From a virus (lineage: Duplodnaviria; Caudoviricetes): 25,002 bases of DNA. The notes beneath the pieces were generated by a model. The model was not told the origin of the DNA. It saw only the letters and a program-made list of their open reading frames with translations, and searched no databases. This document shows positions 8,626 through 23,886 of the stretch, one piece after another (positions within the stretch are counted from its first letter, which is position 1; each line of letters starts with the position of its first letter). The DNA lies in the IMG/VR virus record IMGVR_UViG_3300034356_000431, positions 1 to 25,002 of that record; one strand, given 5' to 3'. The translations under genes and the position numbers were made by a program.

Positions 8626-9002
8626 ATTTCCCTGTCATTCGTTGAAAACAATCCCATCGCCGCCAGCGCATTTGGCCCATCCATACCACCGATAGCAGTC
8701 AGGGTTGTAGGAGATGCGCTGAGAGCCTCTGTGCTGAACGCTAGAGCAGCTTGAGCACGTTCTGCGGCTACCATGTCGATCACTTCAGCAGTGTCCCAGA
8801 GCGGGCGCTGTAGGGGTGCCTGCGCGAAGATGATCCATTCGTCACGAGCATCAAAGGATGCTGCTGCGTAGAGGTTGCCTTGGGCATCTACCCAGTTCAG
8901 TCCACGATAGGTTTCCCCGTCAGCCTCAGAGAAGCCAAGGCACATGGCATACTGGTTGGCCTCGGGGATAAGTAGTTCAGGACAAGAGCATGTAATCCGC
9001 AT
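8622..9002 (-). CDS. Hypothetical protein in the head-spike cassette
   Basis: 126 aa; start and stop overlap both neighbours; lower-GC codon usage like the upstream fibre gene. Confidence 0.65.
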   Translation of the reverse strand: MRITCSCPELLIPEANQYAMCLGFSEADGETYRGLNWVDAQGNLYAAASFDARDEWIIFAQAPLQRPLWDTAEVIDMVAAERAQAALAFSTEALSASPTTLTAIGGMDGPNALAAMGLFSTNDREI

Positions 9003-10357
9003 CAGTATGCTCCCGTCTTTTCATTAACAAAAGTCTCAGTGGAGTAGATAGCCCCAGCGTCTAGGTTAGTCCCGAAGCGGACGATCATGTTGTAGATTTG
9101 ACCATTAGTCGCTATCCCACCCACACCTCTAGCCCCGATATAAATTGGGTAGGCAAGGTAGTTCCCAGTGCCTTGATCACCTGTAGACTGTAGTGCTTGA
9201 GTCCCGTTAAACCTGATGGTAGACCTGTCTCCACCAATATCCCCCAGCCCAGTTATCACAAAACTCTCAATTGCCGCAGTGCCCGTGAGTGAGTCAACTG
9301 GGATTGTACCTTTTGATCGAAACCCACCTCTTGTAGAAGCCCAGTTTCCTAGTAACATAAAAGTTCCGTTGTTGTTATCTGTAATCGTGCTCAGTTCAGC
9401 TATAATGCCAATGTTAGTAGAAAGCTTCCGCACCCCAGCAAAGACCTGAACCTTATCAACCCCCGGAGTAATAGTAGGGGTAACAAGGAAGTCGTCTACC
9501 CCATCGAAGGAGAGGTACGACAAGGATCGAACACCAGCCTCAGTAACGTCAAAGGCAGTCTCTACGCGCTGATAGGCTGTGGCGGTGGAGCCTAGTTCGA
9601 GTTGGGGGCGACCTATGCGATTAAAACTTGTGCCATCTGCCAACCATGTAGCGATATCAAGATCAGCCTGAGCCAACCTCATTAGCCAAGATACTGTCGT
9701 ACCCCCCGTGTTTACAGGAATGGCTGACAGTGTTATTCTACGCCAACCGTTACCCAAGTCAGTAATCGTATGGTTCACATAGGTCATGCTGGCAGAGGTA
9801 GTAAATGACCCTTTGGTAGCGTTGGTTAAATCAAACCACGCATCGACACGATCTGCCACGTTAAGAAAAGCCAGCCTAGCCCATTGTGTGTAGCCTGTTT
9901 GAACCTCGAGAGATAGCGTATGAACCACACCAGCATTTGAAGCGACGCTTCCAGAGATGCCGTGTGTCGATATTGTTGCTGTTGGAATTAGACGCCAATC
10001 TGCGCCATCCGCCGTGACGGTTGATCCATTTTTGGTCCAAAAGACATTGTTGAACTGTTCCGTGAAGGTATATATATTCCTCCGACCACCCAGAGGCACG
10101 ATACCATAAGTAGGACGAGAAGCAGCAGTGGCTTGGGTGGCGTTATTTCCTCTACCGCTTTTGTCGTTAATACGGGCAACAGTCTGACCCGGAGTGGTCA
10201 CAGGGGTAGTGCCTGCGGTGTCTTGGAACATAGTGGTCAGGTCTGAGGGATCATACCAGACGCCGGGTTCAGACGCAGCGAACAAGGATGCAGGAGAGAA
10301 CCTAGAACCAGAAAGGAGTTGCCCTCTAAGGGACACAGGAAGAGCAATAGAGGGCAT
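9002..10357 (-). CDS. Putative head spike fibre protein (lectin/jelly-roll-like domains)
   Basis: WYDPSDLTTMFQD...DKSGRGNNATQAT, DLGNGWRRITL, QLELGSTATAYQ and FDGVDD motifs typical of phage fibre or carbohydrate-binding proteins. Directly after the spike base gene. Confidence 0.65.
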   Translation of the reverse strand: MPSIALPVSLRGQLLSGSRFSPASLFAASEPGVWYDPSDLTTMFQDTAGTTPVTTPGQTVARINDKSGRGNNATQATAASRPTYGIVPLGGRRNIYTFTEQFNNVFWTKNGSTVTADGADWRLIPTATISTHGISGSVASNAGVVHTLSLEVQTGYTQWARLAFLNVADRVDAWFDLTNATKGSFTTSASMTYVNHTITDLGNGWRRITLSAIPVNTGGTTVSWLMRLAQADLDIATWLADGTSFNRIGRPQLELGSTATAYQRVETAFDVTEAGVRSLSYLSFDGVDDFLVTPTITPGVDKVQVFAGVRKLSTNIGIIAELSTITDNNNGTFMLLGNWASTRGGFRSKGTIPVDSLTGTAAIESFVITGLGDIGGDRSTIRFNGTQALQSTGDQGTGNYLAYPIYIGARGVGGIATNGQIYNMIVRFGTNLDAGAIYSTETFVNEKTGAY

Positions 10358-16761: not shown

Positions 16762-17584
16762 CTTCGATCCACCCATAAAATCCTGCCGAGACGCTTGCAG
16801 CCTTATCTGTCGTGACGCGAAACCCGACAATCGCTCCGGCGGGAAACGCCGCTAACGCGCCATCTGCAAGCGTTGTTGTGTTGTCTTGAAGGTCGAGCGT
16901 CCCCTGCTCCAAGAGCAGCCCGGTGTCCTCGAAGCGATCAACGGTCCCGTCAAGGTTCGCGATCGCCGATGCGACTATCGAGACCTGCACCTTCGCCGCC
17001 GCGCTGCCCGAGGATGATCCGGCAAAGAGCGAATGCACGATCAGCCGCTTGCCCGCAGGAACGCGAAACGCGCTGCTGCGCGTGGCGCGCGCTTCTGCCT
17101 CAAGATATTTGTAACGTGTTCCGCTATTGGTGACAGTGATATTCCCTACGACGTGCTTTTCAGATCCGAATGTCAGCCCGGTGAGATCCCCGACCCAGCG
17201 CACATTGGTCGCCGTCGTCAGCACGGGCGTCGTTCCGTTCATCGTCACGATCTCGCTCTGCGGGTTCAGGTTCGCATCGAGGTAGTTGAACCGCAGGGTG
17301 CGGACGCCCGTGCCTGCCGCGCTGTCCTGCGCGCTGGTCGAGACGATCGTCATTTGCACGCCGCCTGCGGGCGCGACTGATGGGTCTTTCACAGTCGACC
17401 CGGGCCAAATCATAATATCTGTCACCGCGCCGCTGGTCGTCAGCGTCCCGGTGATCGCGACCGACTGCGCGCCTTCGACGCGCCCGCGTGCGATCTCAAC
17501 CTGCTGCGTGAACATCAGCCGCCAGATCCGCTGCGACCAATCGCGCACGGGTTTGATCGTCTTGGTGTATCCGACTTCCGTCAT
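16751..17584 (-). CDS. Hypothetical protein, probably virion-associated
   Basis: 277 aa, Thr/Gly/Val-rich with beta-type composition; coupled to both neighbours. Confidence 0.65.
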   Translation of the reverse strand: MTEVGYTKTIKPVRDWSQRIWRLMFTQQVEIARGRVEGAQSVAITGTLTTSGAVTDIMIWPGSTVKDPSVAPAGGVQMTIVSTSAQDSAAGTGVRTLRFNYLDANLNPQSEIVTMNGTTPVLTTATNVRWVGDLTGLTFGSEKHVVGNITVTNSGTRYKYLEAEARATRSSAFRVPAGKRLIVHSLFAGSSSGSAAAKVQVSIVASAIANLDGTVDRFEDTGLLLEQGTLDLQDNTTTLADGALAAFPAGAIVGFRVTTDKAASVSAGFYGWIEDVD

Positions 17585-17754
17585 AGCAAAAACACCTGCG
17601 TCGTGTCATCCGCTGCCGCGATCGCCTCGTATATGTAAATCTCAACCAGCTCTTTATCGGGCTCATTGTATGATTTGAGCAGATCGTCCGCCGCTGCGTC
17701 GCGCTGGTTAGCCGGTAGAGCAAAGATCTGTGCCGTCATCTCTTGATACGTCAT
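17581..17754 (-). CDS. Small acidic protein (57 aa), candidate immunity/inhibitor of the MuF peptidase
   Basis: Not in the ORF track. Hand translation MTYQEMTAQIFALPANQRDAAADDLLKSYNEPDKELVEIYIYEAIAAADDTTQVFLL*. ATGA overlap with the MuF stop and ATGA overlap with the next start. Confidence 0.72.
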   Translation of the reverse strand: MTYQEMTAQIFALPANQRDAAADDLLKSYNEPDKELVEIYIYEAIAAADDTTQVFLL

Positions 17755-19646
17755 GGTTTCACCTTCTTGTCAAACTTGCGGTAGATCGCCAGCAATACGG
17801 GGTGGATCCGGTAGTGCTCACTCTCTGGCATCCCCATGTAGATCGCGAATGTTTCGGCGATATACTCTTTGTCGTTAGTGTTGCCATAGACCGAAACTAG
17901 CAGATCCCACCCAGTTTTGCGCGGCCTCTCTTGCAAAAGAAATGCGTTGATCTCTGCTCCTATGCGGACGTCGGTCAAATGGATGACATGCCCGTATTCA
18001 TGGTAGACAGTCGACTTCGTTGTCACATCATTATCGCTCGACGTCACGTCAACAGTCCAGTTGTATGGCGGACCATTCCCCGCCTCCATTTGTTTAACTC
18101 TGTCGCGGACGCGCTGGTCTATTGAGACCCCCGCTGCCGGGTATAATAAGGTGCTCTCTCGTTTTTTCCGGTAAGTCTCGGCATTCTTCTTGCCAATCGC
18201 CGCCCACTTCTCCGCGCCCTGCCCGAAGCCCGAGGTCGGGATGTGAAAGAGCCCTTTGTTGCCGGTCTGCGAATCTGAGATCGTGGAGTAAATCGCGGCG
18301 AGCGCGTTCTTCGGTCCTCTGATCGAAGAGTAAAACCGTTTCACGTTGCCAAACGCTGCCAGCGGCTTGAGCCCGAACCGCTCCACGACCTCCTGCATCG
18401 CCGGAAGCGCGACGTTGAGCGCCGCTAAGGTCGTGCCCTTCAGATCCACCCGGCCCGCAATACCGCTTGACGTCACATAGGTTTCAATCTGGGCCAGAGA
18501 TTTGAGCGGCTGGTAGGTCTCATAGGCAAACACGGGCGCGAGGGCCGCTGGAGGGGCGGCCACGGGTAACGGAGTGGGTGATACGCGCACAGGTGGTGGA
18601 GGCGCTGGCGGTGCGACTGCAGGCCCGTCTAGCCCTGGTATAAGACCGCGAGAGATGATGCGCGCGAAGACAGCGCATCGGCATTGGATCGTATTCGCGG
18701 CAACCGCGCTGGGATCGCCGGGATAGAGGATCGGACCGAGCGGGCTCGTGAATGTCTCGGCCTGCCCGACGCCGCGCGGGTTCAGGCTCGGGATCTGAAC
18801 GTGCGAGTTGCGGACGTGCCCGTCGCCGGTGTTGATCCACGTCCTGCGGATCTGCCGAGCGTCGATCTGCCCCTTGTTGATCATGTCCTGGAAGAGCTCC
18901 CACTGCGCCCCTTGCACGGCGCGGATGCTCTCGGTCCGGGCGATGACGTTCGCTCGGTACTTGATGTATCGGTCGCGATAACGATCAACCAGCGATCGTA
19001 CTTGCGCATCGGTGAGCGCCTTGTCGTTGCGGATCGCGCGCCCGACGGATGCGTCGCTGCGTCGATCGCGGAGCTTGCGATCCAGCGCCTCCGGGTCGAG
19101 TGCCCGCAGCATCCGCTCATAGTTCGATACCGCCGCCTCTTGCCTGCGCGTGAGCCCGATAGATCCACGGATCCGGCGCGCGATTGCAAACGGATCGTCG
19201 CCCGCAGTCGTGCCCGATTGGAGCACCTGCCGGATCGTGTCGCGCGTCGTCTGGTCGATCTCGCGGATGCGCGTCGATGTGAGCGTGATCGCGAACTGCT
19301 CAAGGCGCGGGTTCAACCCAACCGCGATCTGGAAGTCCTCTTGCGCGCCGTTTACAACACCTTGCGTGTCGCTGGTGGCCTTTACGCCTGCGAGGACGGC
19401 CTGTTGGATCGCTGCCCCGTAAGGTTGCCACTCGGTCGACGTGAAGTGTCCCGCAAAGGCGTTCTCCAGCGAGACGAAGTCGCGCCTTTCGATCATCCGG
19501 GCAATCTGCTCGGCCGGGACGCGGGTCCGGATCTGCTCGATCGCCGCGATGAACGCCCGCGCGATCTTCGGATCCATGCCTTCCGCCGCCCGCAAGAAGA
19601 CGGCCACCGCATCCGAGGCGGTCATCTTGCGCAGGACGGCGTTCAT
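17751..19646 (-). CDS. MuF minor head protein with a C-terminal zinc metallopeptidase domain
   Basis: RANVIARTE, W...DGHVR.SH, YPGDP and CRC MuF motifs; Pro-rich linker; HEYGH (17988-18002) and SVYGNTNDKEYIAETF. Confidence 0.85.
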   Translation of the reverse strand: MNAVLRKMTASDAVAVFLRAAEGMDPKIARAFIAAIEQIRTRVPAEQIARMIERRDFVSLENAFAGHFTSTEWQPYGAAIQQAVLAGVKATSDTQGVVNGAQEDFQIAVGLNPRLEQFAITLTSTRIREIDQTTRDTIRQVLQSGTTAGDDPFAIARRIRGSIGLTRRQEAAVSNYERMLRALDPEALDRKLRDRRSDASVGRAIRNDKALTDAQVRSLVDRYRDRYIKYRANVIARTESIRAVQGAQWELFQDMINKGQIDARQIRRTWINTGDGHVRNSHVQIPSLNPRGVGQAETFTSPLGPILYPGDPSAVAANTIQCRCAVFARIISRGLIPGLDGPAVAPPAPPPPVRVSPTPLPVAAPPAALAPVFAYETYQPLKSLAQIETYVTSSGIAGRVDLKGTTLAALNVALPAMQEVVERFGLKPLAAFGNVKRFYSSIRGPKNALAAIYSTISDSQTGNKGLFHIPTSGFGQGAEKWAAIGKKNAETYRKKRESTLLYPAAGVSIDQRVRDRVKQMEAGNGPPYNWTVDVTSSDNDVTTKSTVYHEYGHVIHLTDVRIGAEINAFLLQERPRKTGWDLLVSVYGNTNDKEYIAETFAIYMGMPESEHYRIHPVLLAIYRKFDKKVKP

Positions 19647-19671: not shown

Positions 19672-21033
19672 TCATTCCGGAACTCCTTGGTCTAGAGGCG
19701 CATCAGGTGATCCGAGCAGATCCGGATCAATCGCCTTCTCGGGGAACCCAGCGGCGCGCCGGATCGTGTTTTCTGTGTCGTCGTCGGGGAAGAGCGGCAT
19801 CCCAGCGCCCGCGATGTCGCGCACGAACGCGCCCAGCTCGGCCAGATCCACAGGGGCGATCTCGCCAAACCCGATCTTGGGCATGACCTCGGGGTCGAAC
19901 CCGTTGATCTCCCAAAGGCGTGGCAAGAGCTGTCGATTAAGCACGGACGAGATCGCTTCGGTGTAGCCGCTCGCAGCAGCGAGGAACAAGTCCGTCTTGC
20001 TCTTCGAGAGCGCGAACGACCCGGTATCGCCACCGCCGAGCATCAGGAAGTCCGCCAGCACCGACCGCGCAATGTTCTGCTGGTGCCGCAGGATCACATC
20101 CCCGGTCGGGATCGCCCGATTTCCTTGCGCAGTCACGAGCCCGAACTCAACCATCGGGATTGAGGTCTTCGTGCCGTCGTCGTTCTCGTAGACGTCGGAC
20201 GGGATCAGGATGAAACCCTGGTCGTTGAATTTGACGTCGCGCAAGATCTTCTTGAATGCGTTGGTGAATCCCTGCTGCGCCGCGCTCGCGCTTTCCCCGA
20301 GGTATTCTGATGGGATTTTTCCAACCGGGATCCCGTTCATCTCGCGCTCGACCGCGATCGCCTCGATCATCTGGATATGCGATGCGTAATGGTAGGAGGT
20401 GAAGGCGTTGCGGAGGATCGATCGGCCGCTCGGGTCGTTGTTCACGGTCGATGTGCGGAAGTGCAGCATCTTCGAAGCCGGGATGTCGACCGATCCAAGC
20501 TTGAGCGAGAGCGCGCTCTGGCGCACGCCGGTGATCGTTCCGTTCTCGTCCGTGAGGAAACGGTCTATCGTCCACTGGGCGCGCGGCGCCAGCTTCCGGA
20601 TCCCGTAGCGGCCGTCGTCAAACTGCGAATAGCGCGTCGGGTCGTCGGTTTTGCGTCCGGATCGGGTCTTGTAGACCACCTCAAAGACCGCGAACCCAAA
20701 CGGGAGAAACGTCAGCACCTCGGCCAGGAAGTCGTCTGTCGTCCCATCCATGTCATCGAAGCATTGCTCGACGAAGACCTGCGCCTCCTTTGCCTCTGGG
20801 CTGTCGTCTGCTGCCTCAACGCGAAACTCTGCCGCGCGCAAGAGCATCTCGAACGCCATGAGGATCGCGCCGATTGTCGGGTCGTTGTCTTTCATCTCGC
20901 GAAACGTTCGCGTCGCGTTGATTCCCCGGAGCTTCGGGAGAAACTCGTCCGGGCGGAGCTGATCGTCCCGGCCGTAGTTACCGGCGGCGCCGAGCTCTCG
21001 GGTTGCCGTCGCCTTCATTGGTGCTTTTGCCAT
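19672..21033 (-). CDS. Portal protein (DUF935/Mu gp29-like)
   Basis: 453 aa after terL; FGFAVFEVVY, PSGRSILR, GSFALS, LNRQLLP..WEING motifs. Confidence 0.88.
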   Translation of the reverse strand: MAKAPMKATATRELGAAGNYGRDDQLRPDEFLPKLRGINATRTFREMKDNDPTIGAILMAFEMLLRAAEFRVEAADDSPEAKEAQVFVEQCFDDMDGTTDDFLAEVLTFLPFGFAVFEVVYKTRSGRKTDDPTRYSQFDDGRYGIRKLAPRAQWTIDRFLTDENGTITGVRQSALSLKLGSVDIPASKMLHFRTSTVNNDPSGRSILRNAFTSYHYASHIQMIEAIAVEREMNGIPVGKIPSEYLGESASAAQQGFTNAFKKILRDVKFNDQGFILIPSDVYENDDGTKTSIPMVEFGLVTAQGNRAIPTGDVILRHQQNIARSVLADFLMLGGGDTGSFALSKSKTDLFLAAASGYTEAISSVLNRQLLPRLWEINGFDPEVMPKIGFGEIAPVDLAELGAFVRDIAGAGMPLFPDDDTENTIRRAAGFPEKAIDPDLLGSPDAPLDQGVPE

Positions 21034-23414
21034 CAGACCGGCCTCGCTTTATTGCCCACATGATCCCCGATCACGAACAGACCGGCCTTCTTCTGCCGCT
21101 TGGGAGCGACGGCATTAAAGCCAGAGCTCGCAGCGTCTGCCTGATCCTTATACACGCCTCTTGGGAAATGTCGAAGCTCCTCGATGAAATCTCTGTTCCA
21201 CGCCCCGATCACGACGTCGACGTTCCCCGCCTCGATCTGCGCCGCGAGCGGCTCGGCCCGAGTCTCCTTGGACCCGCTCTGCGGTTCGATCCGCACGCGA
21301 TAGCCAGCGAGCCTGACGGTGAAGTCGCGCGCCTGCGCCTTTCCCGCCTGCCCTGGATCCTGCGGCAGCGAGATCGGAACGTCGTCGCCGTCAAACTCGG
21401 CAGCATCTGCGACCATCTTTCGCACGCCGTCTGGCCCAAGTCGCCCGCGCTTGACGTCCGCGATGATGACCCGGCGGGCCTCGACGCGCCAGCCGACCAG
21501 AACGCCTGCGGTGTAAGCGCCTGCGCCGTCCGTCGCTGCCAAGTCCCAAGCCCTGCACCAGTTGATCTCCTCGTCGGGCACGGCGTTGATCATCCTGATG
21601 TTGTCGACTTTGAACAAGCCGCCTTCGCGCGGCGTGGGGCGCTGCTCAAGTTGCGCGGAGGATGCGTATGGGCCGAGCGTGTGGACCAGATCAGCCACTG
21701 CCTGCGCCGAGAAGCGCGCGGGCCACATGAGATCACCGTCCTGCGTGCGAGGATCCTTCCAGCCGATCGAGGTCGTGCGTGATCTCGCGCTGTCGTAGTG
21801 CATCGGGATCATGAGGTGCTCGTATCCCTGCTCGATCGCCGCTGCGGCGACGTCCTCGTGGTGCACACGCTGCATGATCGTGACGAATGCGCTGCGGTCC
21901 AGATCGTTCACGCGGCTTGGTACGACCTCGCGGAACCATTGCAGCGTCTCACCGCGGATCGCGTCGCTCTCGGCCTCGAGGATGTTGTGCGGATCATCTA
22001 TGCAGTTGCTGACAATACATCCACTTCCTGCTATGAAGTTATTGTTATCAGCAACAGTCAGGCAGAAGGTTTCATCAACATGACCCACATGGATAACACT
22101 GAGTGGCGTAGTATTCCCGGCATGGAGGGGTTTTACGAAGTCTCCGAAACAGGCCTCATCCGCAGCCTCTCGCGCATCGCCAAGCGAGCGCATACCGGCG
22201 ACTACACGGTCAGAGGCAAAGTGCTCAGCCTGTCCTTGGATGGTCGGGGGTATTTGCGCTGCGCGGGGTCGCTCGGATGCGCCGCCAAACGAGTGATGAT
22301 CTGGTCCCATAGTGCGGTCGCCGCAGCTTTCATCGGGCCTCGCCCGGAATGTCACGATGTCAGGCACCTCGACGGGAACGCCCTCAACAATCATGTCAGC
22401 AACATCGCGTATGGGACGCGGGCCGAGAACGTCGCCGACTCCAAGCGGCATGGCACATTTAACCCCCGAGTGACCCGAAAACTGACCCGTGCCCAAGTGA
22501 TCAACATTTGCAAGCGCCACGACCTCACCGCCAAAGTGGCTGCTAAGGAGTTTGGGTGTAGTGAAACATACATCGCCGCAATTCGATCTGGGGTTTACTA
22601 CAGGGAACTGACCGAGGGTGTGCGGCTCCCGCACTACCACCGCGCTCGGAAGGGAATGTCGCGCAGTCAAAGCGGAGGCAGGGCAATCGCCGCCCCCGAG
22701 TAACGGAAACCTGTGATCGTCGGTTGTGCGCACGGACGCGCCGTCCTTGAGCGTGGTGCGCACAACCTGCCCCCCCGGATTGCGGAATAGCTGGGTGACT
22801 GGCTTCAATTCGATCGCGTGCGTTTTGCGGTTGAAGGACCAGACACGCGAACCAATCAATACATCCCGGATAGGAACGCACCCGTTCTCCGCCCAGACGA
22901 CTTCATCACCGGGCAGGCAAAACACGTCCCCGCGCTCGCCAGTCGCGCGCCCTCTGACCGATGTCGCCATCATTGATCCGGTCTCGGTGTTCGCGAAGTT
23001 TACCTTTTGCGCCTGGTCATCCGACAGCCGCACGCGCGGGAATAGACGCTGATAGAGCGGGCTCTCGACGATCATCTTGGCGCGCCGATTGTCACGCGCT
23101 GCGAGCGCCTCGGCGTAGGACGCGCCGATATACCGGAGCGACGGCTGCGCAATCCAGCTCCACGTCGGCCAGAATGCGCGCGTGAGGAGCGATTTCATCG
23201 AACCAGGCGGGACCGTGATCAGTAGCTTGCGGATCTCGCCCTTGGTGACCGCCTCAAGGTGCTCGGCGATCGCCTCGATTGGCCAGCCGGTGACGAGCTT
23301 GCGGCCAGGTTCGAGCACCGGCCAGAACGTCTGGGCGAAGTAGAGCACCGACCTGCGGCATAGCTCCGCCTCAATTAAGTCGCGATCCGCCGTCGTGATC
23401 TTGGGGAGCTGCAT
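21033..23414 (-). CDS. terL: Terminase large subunit, intein-containing (793-aa precursor, 488 aa after splicing)
   Basis: Walker A region VPPGSMKS; Walker B TGERGDVF|CIDDPH split by the intein; IMQRVH coupling motif; nuclease motifs AWDLA and DQADA. Confidence 0.95.
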   Translation of the reverse strand: MQLPKITTADRDLIEAELCRRSVLYFAQTFWPVLEPGRKLVTGWPIEAIAEHLEAVTKGEIRKLLITVPPGSMKSLLTRAFWPTWSWIAQPSLRYIGASYAEALAARDNRRAKMIVESPLYQRLFPRVRLSDDQAQKVNFANTETGSMMATSVRGRATGERGDVFCLPGDEVVWAENGCVPIRDVLIGSRVWSFNRKTHAIELKPVTQLFRNPGGQVVRTTLKDGASVRTTDDHRFPLLGGGDCPASALTARHSLPSAVVVREPHTLGQFPVVNPRSNCGDVCFTTPKLLSSHFGGEVVALANVDHLGTGQFSGHSGVKCAMPLGVGDVLGPRPIRDVADMIVEGVPVEVPDIVTFRARPDESCGDRTMGPDHHSFGGASERPRAAQIPPTIQGQAEHFASDRVVAGMRSLGDAREAADEACFGDFVKPLHAGNTTPLSVIHVGHVDETFCLTVADNNNFIAGSGCIVSNCIDDPHNILEAESDAIRGETLQWFREVVPSRVNDLDRSAFVTIMQRVHHEDVAAAAIEQGYEHLMIPMHYDSARSRTTSIGWKDPRTQDGDLMWPARFSAQAVADLVHTLGPYASSAQLEQRPTPREGGLFKVDNIRMINAVPDEEINWCRAWDLAATDGAGAYTAGVLVGWRVEARRVIIADVKRGRLGPDGVRKMVADAAEFDGDDVPISLPQDPGQAGKAQARDFTVRLAGYRVRIEPQSGSKETRAEPLAAQIEAGNVDVVIGAWNRDFIEELRHFPRGVYKDQADAASSGFNAVAPKRQKKAGLFVIGDHVGNKARPV
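22009..22037 (+). promoter_or_regulatory. Candidate sigma70-type promoter for the antisense endonuclease
   Basis: CTGACA (22009-22014), 17-nt spacer, TATGAA (22032-22037) preceded by TG at 22029-22030; in an AT-richer patch 42 nt before the ATG. Confidence 0.45.
22080..22703 (+). CDS. NUMOD4-HNH homing endonuclease with a C-terminal HTH, nested antisense inside the intein (207 aa; alternative start 22089)
   Basis: EWRSIPGMEGFYEVSETGLIRS...GY (NUMOD4); HSAVAAAFIGPRP...VRHLDGNALNNHVSNIAYGTRAEN (HNH); KLTRAQV...VAAKEFGCSETYIAAIRSG (HTH). AGAAGGT at 22064-22070 precedes ATG 22080. Confidence 0.9.
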   Translation: MTHMDNTEWRSIPGMEGFYEVSETGLIRSLSRIAKRAHTGDYTVRGKVLSLSLDGRGYLRCAGSLGCAAKRVMIWSHSAVAAAFIGPRPECHDVRHLDGNALNNHVSNIAYGTRAENVADSKRHGTFNPRVTRKLTRAQVINICKRHDLTAKVAAKEFGCSETYIAAIRSGVYYRELTEGVRLPHYHRARKGMSRSQSGGRAIAAPE

Positions 23415-23886
23415 CTGCGATCGCCTTTGACAGTTCGAGGAGTGCCTCGGTTGAGAGCTTGGATAAGTCGACCGTCTGGATCGGCCCGCCGGCTGCGCCG
23501 CTGATCTCGACCTTCTGCGTCTCCGACCAGCGCATCTGCGTCTTGGTCCACCAGATCATCGCGGTCGTGTCGCCCTTCAGTGCCTTGTTGAACAATGCGT
23601 TCGCGATCTTCCAGCCCGTTTCGGCCTTTCCCTCATCAAGCTCGACGCGGAAGTGCTCGGCCAGCGTGTCGATCCCGATCCCCTTCTGGCGGACGAGCAT
23701 CCGGATCTGGTGCTGCGGCAGCCCGAGCCCGGAGAGCTTGCGGACGAGCTTTCGATCCGCGTCGGTCGGGACGAACGGAGGACGCCCTGCTCCGGGCTGC
23801 GCTCCGCCTGAGACGCCTGCGCCTGGCTTCGGCCCGCGAGGCTTGCGGACCTTTTCTGCTTTCGTTTTTTCTGTTTGGTCCGTCAT
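23371..23886 (-). CDS. terS: Terminase small subunit
   Basis: GGAQPGAGRPP, HTH-like segment, ELDEGK, LFNKALKGDTTAMIWWTKTQMRW motifs; overlaps the terL start; GGGAG RBS. Confidence 0.85.
   Translation of the reverse strand: MTDQTEKTKAEKVRKPRGPKPGAGVSGGAQPGAGRPPFVPTDADRKLVRKLSGLGLPQHQIRMLVRQKGIGIDTLAEHFRVELDEGKAETGWKIANALFNKALKGDTTAMIWWTKTQMRWSETQKVEISGAAGGPIQTVDLSKLSTEALLELSKAIADAAPQDHDGGSRLN

Follow-up and report, generated by a model that had tools for sequence, protein, structure and literature searches.

The gene for the large terminase subunit (terL) in a stretch of tailed-phage DNA carries what is probably an intein active in homing, with its nuclease encoded by a gene of its own on the antisense strand, a reading that we base on comparative sequence analysis. 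The stretch, referred to here as the window, comprises 25,002 nucleotides (nt; IMG/VR virus record IMGVR_UViG_3300034356_000431, positions 1 to 25,002; Duplodnaviria, Caudoviricetes). The terL frame (21033-23414, minus strand) encodes a precursor of 793 amino acids (aa) with matches to Terminase_6C, TIGR01630, and phrog_38 (E 1.5e-68). It is interrupted, in the strand that we take to be Walker B, by a stop-free stretch of 305 codons (22005-22919, minus strand) that begins with C1, ends with S304-N305, and is followed by Cys in the context GERGDVF-intein-CIDDPH. The insertion point lies two residues ahead of the Walker B Asp-Asp; sites -1, -2, -3, and -4 are counted as the residues before this pair, the window being -2.

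Several lines of evidence identify this stretch as an intein. Both NCBIfam splicing models pass their cut-offs, TIGR01445 on the N-terminal splicing region (22704-22919, minus strand; 72 codons with C1 and T66-x-x-H69; 29.7 bits, cut-off 24.5) and TIGR01443 on the C-terminal splicing region (22005-22079, minus strand; 25 codons; 23.1 bits, cut-off 15.6). Pfam Intein_splicing (E 9e-8) is slightly below its cut-off. The motifs of a class 1 intein, namely C1, block B TxxH (T66-H69), N305, and a +1 Cys, are present. Together, models and residues confirm the 305-aa TerL intein that had been proposed from an earlier, sequence-only reading of the window. Among the closest terL loci (the best 45 of 79, used for all such comparisons below), the insert is absent in 42 and present in three, which marks it as an in-frame insertion. 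The sequence-only reading had also described about 200 central residues without a motif, and Pfam, NCBIfam, and PHROG indeed gave no match there; the same searches found no in-frame nuclease domain in the window intein, which is therefore not a canonical bifunctional intein. Nor does the insert resemble a group I intron with an encoded nuclease, as no Rfam match to a ribozyme core at gathering score was found in the window and the insert is in frame with intein ends. An AlphaFold model of the intein from a four-row alignment was uninformative (mean predicted local distance difference test score, 33).

Between the two splicing regions, the opposite strand holds an intact open reading frame (ORF) of 207 aa (22080-22703, plus strand) that is in register with terL and leaves the host frame open; the N-terminal splicing region lies outside it, and the reverse strand of the C-terminal region forms its leader. 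Hidden Markov model searches of both strands placed the splicing regions on the minus strand and, on the plus strand, a NUMOD4 motif (aa 8-61, 22101-22262; PF07463, E 3e-10) and an HNH core (aa 77-118, 22308-22433; PF13392, HNH_3, E 5.5e-9), both above cut-off. A weak helix-turn-helix (HTH; aa 133-169, 22476-22586; HTH_23, PF13384, E 0.005) was under its cut-off. The NUMOD4-HNH-HTH layout described earlier is thus borne out for the NUMOD4 and HNH domains but only suggested for the HTH. The protein matches PDB entry 1U3E ("HNH homing endonuclease"; E 2.7e-6), which we take to be I-HmuI, and the His and Asn positions align. H96, N108, N117, and D120, the last just past the core, are invariant in 28/28 family members.

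The codon boundaries of terL and the HNH gene coincide, so the two frames are exactly in register, and it is the absence of TTA, CTA, and TCA from the nuclease gene that keeps terL a single ORF. TTA or CTA occurs in 0/13 Leu codons and TCA in 0/16 Ser codons, in line with the sequence-only reading, which had made the open terL frame depend on avoidance of these three codons. About four antisense stops would be expected in the window HNH gene at free-standing rates, and under the phage's own codon use the avoidance has a P of about 0.044 in this 60%-GC gene; taken for the window by itself, the avoidance is modest evidence. The ATG of the HNH gene is supplied by an intein His codon read in reverse complement. 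A longer plus-strand ORF starting from GTG at 21798 (301 aa) was rejected, as the family start is the His-codon position.

The HNH gene is under purifying selection on the plus strand. As reference for the window, we used locus L003, which is 80% identical in the intein frame and 88% in the nuclease frame. Within the HNH ORF, the ratio of nonsynonymous to synonymous substitution rates (dN/dS) is 0.15 on the plus strand (P 1e-14) and 0.95 on the terL strand, with 19/9/46 differences at plus-strand codon positions 1/2/3. The NUMOD4, core, HTH, and tail segments each have a dN/dS of 0.12-0.16 (aa 126-175, 0.12). The pattern is reversed in the splicing regions and exteins, where the terL-strand dN/dS is 0.03-0.19 (N-terminal splicing region, 0.19; C-terminal splicing region, 0.06). 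Constraint therefore follows the plus strand solely inside the HNH ORF, as the sequence-only reading had predicted. A plus-strand excess of third-position differences was found in 10/11 homologous pairs of the family. At two loci, L035 and L020, the antisense nuclease ORF overlaps intein block B, its stop lying 63 codons from the first codon of the intein, and some codons are thereby constrained on both strands.

This arrangement is shared by a large family. The nuclease alignment was searched against viral, metagenome, and genome collections, and six frames were scanned for intein blocks, imposing neither orientation nor frame. The nuclease was nested in an intein at 45/185 loci (29 distinct, GC content 29-65%; the 45 include the window, L008, L020, and duplicates). 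The six-frame scan that the sequence-only reading had called for thus returned a uniform answer: all 45 nested genes are antisense, in register 0, and without a stop in the host terL frame. The corresponding frame is open in 10/113 distinct free-standing relatives and in 0/40 of those below 55% GC. Across 28 family genes, 0 antisense stops were seen versus about 248 expected at free-standing rates, a deficit well outside what chance allows. An in-frame nuclease family was found in 0/52 scanned relatives. When 1.84 billion representatives were searched with a profile, 81 matched at E<=1e-30, and an intein ending directly before Asp-Asp was present in 105/153 parsed proteins. An antisense HNH-core signature, that is, a score above all 525 shuffles as inferred from proteins only, was found in 90/92 long Walker-B inteins versus 0/13 short ones. 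A full-length antisense profile scored some mini-inteins by its edges (100/105), and the HNH-core profile was used instead.

All 28 nucleases from inteins group in a single clade (Shimodaira-Hasegawa-like approximate likelihood ratio test, SH-aLRT, 98) together with 4/92 free-standing rows, and a single origin of the nested nucleases is likely. Because the 28 share their clade with only these four relatives, the HNH capture would lie at the root of a large family. The earlier interpretation that an HNH gene invaded a mini-intein in inverted orientation is supported, but as an ancestral capture and not as a local event. Two of the four free-standing clade members (L077:2489-2926 and L034:2501-3199) are antisense and adjoin a terL-like ORF. 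The L034 nuclease lies between an apparent terS and terL, the latter terL-like by sequence; both nucleases are possibly escapees or ancestors. Mini-inteins of 136-151 aa without an antisense nuclease occupy the same Walker B sites (13/105; for example, L014:579-1031, P0049, P0071, P0073, P0084, P0099, P0102, P0112, and P0115) and may be ancestors or decay products. The TerL of P0006 bears two inteins, the second of which belongs to the antisense-HNH family at site -1.

The sole match among 50,697 phage records is Escherichia phage BUCT618 (OM735461.1), deposited as a complete genome of an E. coli phage, which has an antisense NUMOD4-HNH intein at site -4 (L008:2234-2905, minus strand). Its antisense ORF of 223 aa is unannotated in the GenBank record, in agreement with the prediction that standard annotation misses the gene, and its intein ends NNNF...SN, as in the window. 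A literature search turned up no publication on BUCT618. L116 and L187 carry near-identical copies of the BUCT618 element. The window intein itself is a mosaic, with a C-terminal block (22005-22079) 71% identical to that of BUCT618 and a nuclease closest (47%) to the L029 group.

The insertion sites and their flanks bear on how the element moves. The 105 inteins are distributed over site -1 (66), -2 (23), -3 (1), and -4 (15). In the window, the +1 residue is encoded by TGC (22002-22004, minus strand), and 42/42 close empty alleles lack this Cys; they read GDVF-V-IDD, with one GDRF-I-IDD. At site -4, Cys is lacking in 47/48 distinct parsed empty alleles, which mostly have Ala (24/80 loci unparsed by the pattern, seven duplicates removed), and at site -1, 8/8 empty alleles have Leu (one duplicate removed). 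Locus L208, whose intein is identical to that of the window (915/915 nt), departs from the empty alleles L210 and L211 at only five of 495 N-extein positions, namely -13, -10, -7, -4, and -1; on the C side, it differs from them at +1, 2, 3, 6, 9, 12, and 27. The 30 nt that surround the junction hold 11 differences, as against 30-32 in the remaining 1434 nt (P about 1e-10). The window shares the N-side tract with L208 (22920-22932, minus strand; -13..-1, five synonymous differences from empty alleles), and in its C-side tract (21993-22004, minus strand; +1..+12), 6/12 nt differ from near-identical empty alleles. Beyond the junction, the window and L208 N-exteins differ at 35/495 positions, the nearest at -22. 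L016 differs from 4/4 close empty alleles at +1, 2, 3, 7, and 9, and from three also at +12, a second short downstream tract, in an independent sub-family. Based on the Val or Ile at +1 in all 42 empty alleles and the mismatches clustered at -13..+12, the intein likely imports its own +1 nucleophile.

The distribution is at odds with vertical descent, with recombination as a caveat. A C-extein tree built from 38 distinct rows rejected a single clade for those that bear the intein (approximately unbiased test, p-AU 6e-47), and L058 and L136 share 78-87% identity across intein and nuclease versus 28-42% across exteins. The same distribution bears on the idea that the HNH protein has become a domesticated partner, one that aids terminase cutting or packaging and is kept for the benefit of the phage. 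The location of the gene inside terL would fit such a role, and HNH proteins that aid terminases are known (PMC11855218). However, 42 of the 45 closest terL loci, some of them 96% identical, lack the intein and hence the gene, and the NUMOD4-HNH-HTH order fits a homing nuclease; we find domestication highly improbable.

We propose the following course of events. The intein on the terL strand would splice out and so remove the 200-residue antisense filler; splicing is suggested by the position of the insert, which splits Walker B of an essential enzyme, and by the purifying selection on the splicing regions. The nuclease would be made from its own antisense transcript, uncoupling it from late terL expression, and its start codon, ribosome-binding site, and often a sigma-70-like promoter would lie opposite the C-terminal splicing blocks. 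It would then cut intein-free terL, and repair would copy the intein along with roughly twelve bases of flank, among them the +1 Cys codon. The cut may be a nick that falls a few nucleotides downstream of where the intein inserts, in the manner of I-HmuI, which nicks 3 nt downstream of its own insertion site (PMC3017599), and the enzyme probably reads the conserved Asp-Asp-Pro-His codons. A nick downstream would leave the +1 codon inside the converted tract and make any nearby codon boundary usable. In its fullest form, to which we give about even credence, the proposal is of a self-contained invader, an antisense nicking HNH with promoter and ribosome-binding site in the catalytic blocks, whose homing overwrites a host codon with Cys and which may have slid over four Walker B codons and colonized at least 90 divergent terminase lineages. 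If true, such an invader would break the rule that an intein needs a native Cys, Ser, or Thr at its target.

To assess the expression signals, 23 representatives were scored against synonymous shuffles, the leader being the antisense of the C-terminal splicing blocks. In all nucleases considered (29/29), the start codon is an intein His codon in reverse complement and sits 24-33 codons away from the end of the intein; the two His codons yield ATG and GTG. This agreement is built in to some extent, since starts close to where the profile begins were selected. The Shine-Dalgarno match in the leaders was 105 versus 69.5 in synonymous shuffles (P 0.0005), and a sigma-70-like promoter score of >=9/12 was reached by 11/23 representatives versus 5.8 in shuffles (P 0.0045), both P values being optimistic since the representatives are related. 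Three control regions showed no promoter or Shine-Dalgarno enrichment. The block F His codon is CAT in 15/15, which gives TATGAT on the opposite strand, and several members have TTGACA/T-17-TATGAT. The C-terminal splicing region of the window has a GC content of 41% versus 60% for the window. Its leader contains a Shine-Dalgarno-like GAAGGT (22065-22070, plus strand) 9 nt before the HNH ATG, which in this copy alone is not significant (P 0.35). A candidate promoter, CTGACA-17-TG.TATGAA (22009-22037, plus strand), is weak, was picked by eye, and fails the scans; a consensus promoter and terminator scan of 21500-23100 found none.

Besides the relatedness of these representatives, a number of observations weigh against an active homing intein with an antisense nuclease. 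The window promoter match is poor (best strict score 6/12, P 0.9), and block F His is absent. The residue preceding the catalytic His is Arg in 25/28 members and Asp in 1U3E, where we presume it to be a metal binder; Arg is also the most frequent residue in free-standing relatives (44/72 matched). One pair, L008/L116, with just 22 differences, does not show the plus-strand pattern. The window intein has neither usual C-terminal His, as its penultimate residue is Ser304 and its block F reads DNNNF, so the normal splicing blocks of the sequence-only reading stand for C1, block B, N305, and +1 Cys but not for the C-terminal histidines. The penultimate Ser and block F Asn, with the uninformative structure model, might even suggest a dead end, in which the insert is non-splicing and the phages that carry it are defective, or what is left of the HNH gene is in decay. 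We consider this very unlikely given the purifying selection on the splicing regions (dN/dS 0.06-0.19), the terL frame that is open at 45/45 loci, and BUCT618, a deposited complete genome with the same NNNF...SN ends. A penultimate residue other than His is also common in phage inteins (PMC5050341), and His holds this position in just 9/105 Walker-B inteins of our set, so its absence is not disqualifying.

On the side of mobility, free recombination among these phage alleles weakens the tree test, and ordinary recombination could yield similar junction tracts. Transfer without the +1 Cys would be lethal, so selection alone would impose the import of this residue, which therefore says nothing of where the cut lies. 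Cys is present in some empty alleles (1/48 at site -4 and 2/10 parsed distant terL at site -2, with 24/34 of the distant set unparsed). In addition, nuclease identity tracks extein identity (Mantel rho 0.34-0.50, versus 0.26 for the N-terminal splicing region), and the Mantel tests gave no tighter co-travel of the nuclease with the splicing domain than with the extein. Since nuclease similarity follows the exteins, long-range jumps would be a minority and spread would occur mostly among related terminases. The empty alleles L363, L268, and L273 have Cys at an intein position (FGGCIII, IICV, and IICI) and are possibly scars of intein loss or natural targets.

These points lend some weight to a passenger, in which an active nuclease serves its own spread by other means, cutting elsewhere or harming competing phages, and the intein is a harmless landing place moved by ordinary recombination and filtered for +1 Cys. 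Purifying selection on the HNH shows activity and not target, viability alone demands the imported Cys, these terL alleles commonly show recombination tracts, and I-HmuI nicks intron-plus alleles too (PMC3017599). Nevertheless, the 28 nucleases make up a single clade, found without exception in this intein and this motif, the conversion tracts are short and centered on the junction in two independent sub-families, and the intein is rare in close alleles (3/45) yet present in separate lineages. A passenger therefore seems unlikely to us. Taken together, the element with its antisense nuclease is real, selected, and widespread, and it is probably mobile; the earlier suggestion that the nuclease makes the intein mobile is favored by the scattered alleles and short junction tract.

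Antisense homing endonucleases of LAGLIDADG or VSR-like type within contiguous inteins have been described by Gosselin, Arsenault, and Gogarten (bioRxiv 10.1101/2025.01.02.630785), who call such layouts rare (63 non-canonical of 784) and cite Gorbalenya 1998 for Synechocystis DnaX and a Chloroflexus SpoVR-like protein. As far as the available text of that preprint goes, its antisense inteins resemble that of the window in having a separate opposite-strand ORF, an open host frame, a terminase among the hosts, continuing spread, and a proposed origin from a free-standing nuclease. The window nuclease is of neither described antisense type; it is an antisense NUMOD4-HNH, whereas the preprint, in the same text, lists HNH in frame only, and "NUMOD", "promoter", "Walker", and "co-conversion" are absent from it. 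Its layouts are rare, whereas the family described here has at least 90 clusters at 50% identity, and it treats an allele without Ser, Thr, or Cys at +1 as a possibly non-viable target, whereas the antisense-HNH family occupies such alleles. The sequence-only reading had left the novelty of the arrangement aside; it is published for LAGLIDADG and VSR-like nucleases, and we found no antisense HNH in an intein in the literature, of which subscription journals were mostly uncovered and the preprint's supplementary intein list could contain one.

Four further systems are related in part. I-HmuI and I-BasI, HNH nicking nucleases of group I introns (PMC3017599), have the same NUMOD4-HNH-HTH layout but are intron-borne, whereas the window HNH is antisense in an intein, has Arg for Asp before the catalytic His, and has predicted activity. 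The ShiLan domain, a hidden out-of-frame HNH in a phage methylase (PMC11855218), shares the stop-free host frame, the omission from annotation, and a homing-like spread. It lies in an alternate frame of a non-essential host with no splicing domain and no detectable ribosome-binding site, while the window has a full intein in an essential enzyme and an antisense gene with a ribosome-binding site. In the fractured genes of Dassa et al. (2009, PMC2677866), where split inteins go with free-standing nucleases of GIY-YIG or Vsr-like type and one locus is a terminase, the nuclease likewise lies between splicing blocks, but the host is broken in two, whereas the window terL stays one ORF. Mycobacteriophage TerL inteins (Kelley et al. 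2016, PMC5050341) also lie in the TerL ATPase domain, TerL1-e in Walker B, with two Walker A sites one residue apart and a penultimate His that is often absent; no antisense nuclease is noted in the sections available.

Beyond this prior work, our analysis points to the nuclease type, the family size, an imported +1 Cys with four adjacent sites, embedded expression signals, and a testable E. coli phage. Annotation takes the family for inteins with a decayed middle, and counts of active phage homing nucleases are therefore too low. The family also offers a clean natural example in which about 200 codons are read from either strand, one strand carrying the function and the other having merely to stay free of stops, and it supports the model in which inteins gain mobility via capture of free-standing nucleases. 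If the imported +1 Cys is true, inteins would not be confined to targets that already have a nucleophile, a point relevant to how they come to occupy new sites. The near-identical empty alleles L210 and L211, together with BUCT618, make splicing, antisense expression, and homing directly testable.

The window covers a tailed-phage morphogenesis region with genes all on the minus strand. In addition to terL, it encodes the small terminase (terS, 23371-23886; phrog_309) and the portal protein (19672-21033; phrog_113, Portal_Mu). A MuF-type head morphogenesis protein (17751-19646, minus strand; 631 aa) has a Pro-rich linker and a ~260-aa C-terminal extension that contains HEYGH...E, a metallopeptidase-like motif, and a 57-aa ORF (17581-17754, minus strand) overlaps and follows its gene. 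The pair presumably resembles a MuF polymorphic toxin with a small partner. Lastly, a 451-aa ORF among the tail genes (9002-10357, minus strand) has a low GC content (47-50%), no Pfam match, and only a weak PHROG match, and is likely a recently swapped module.

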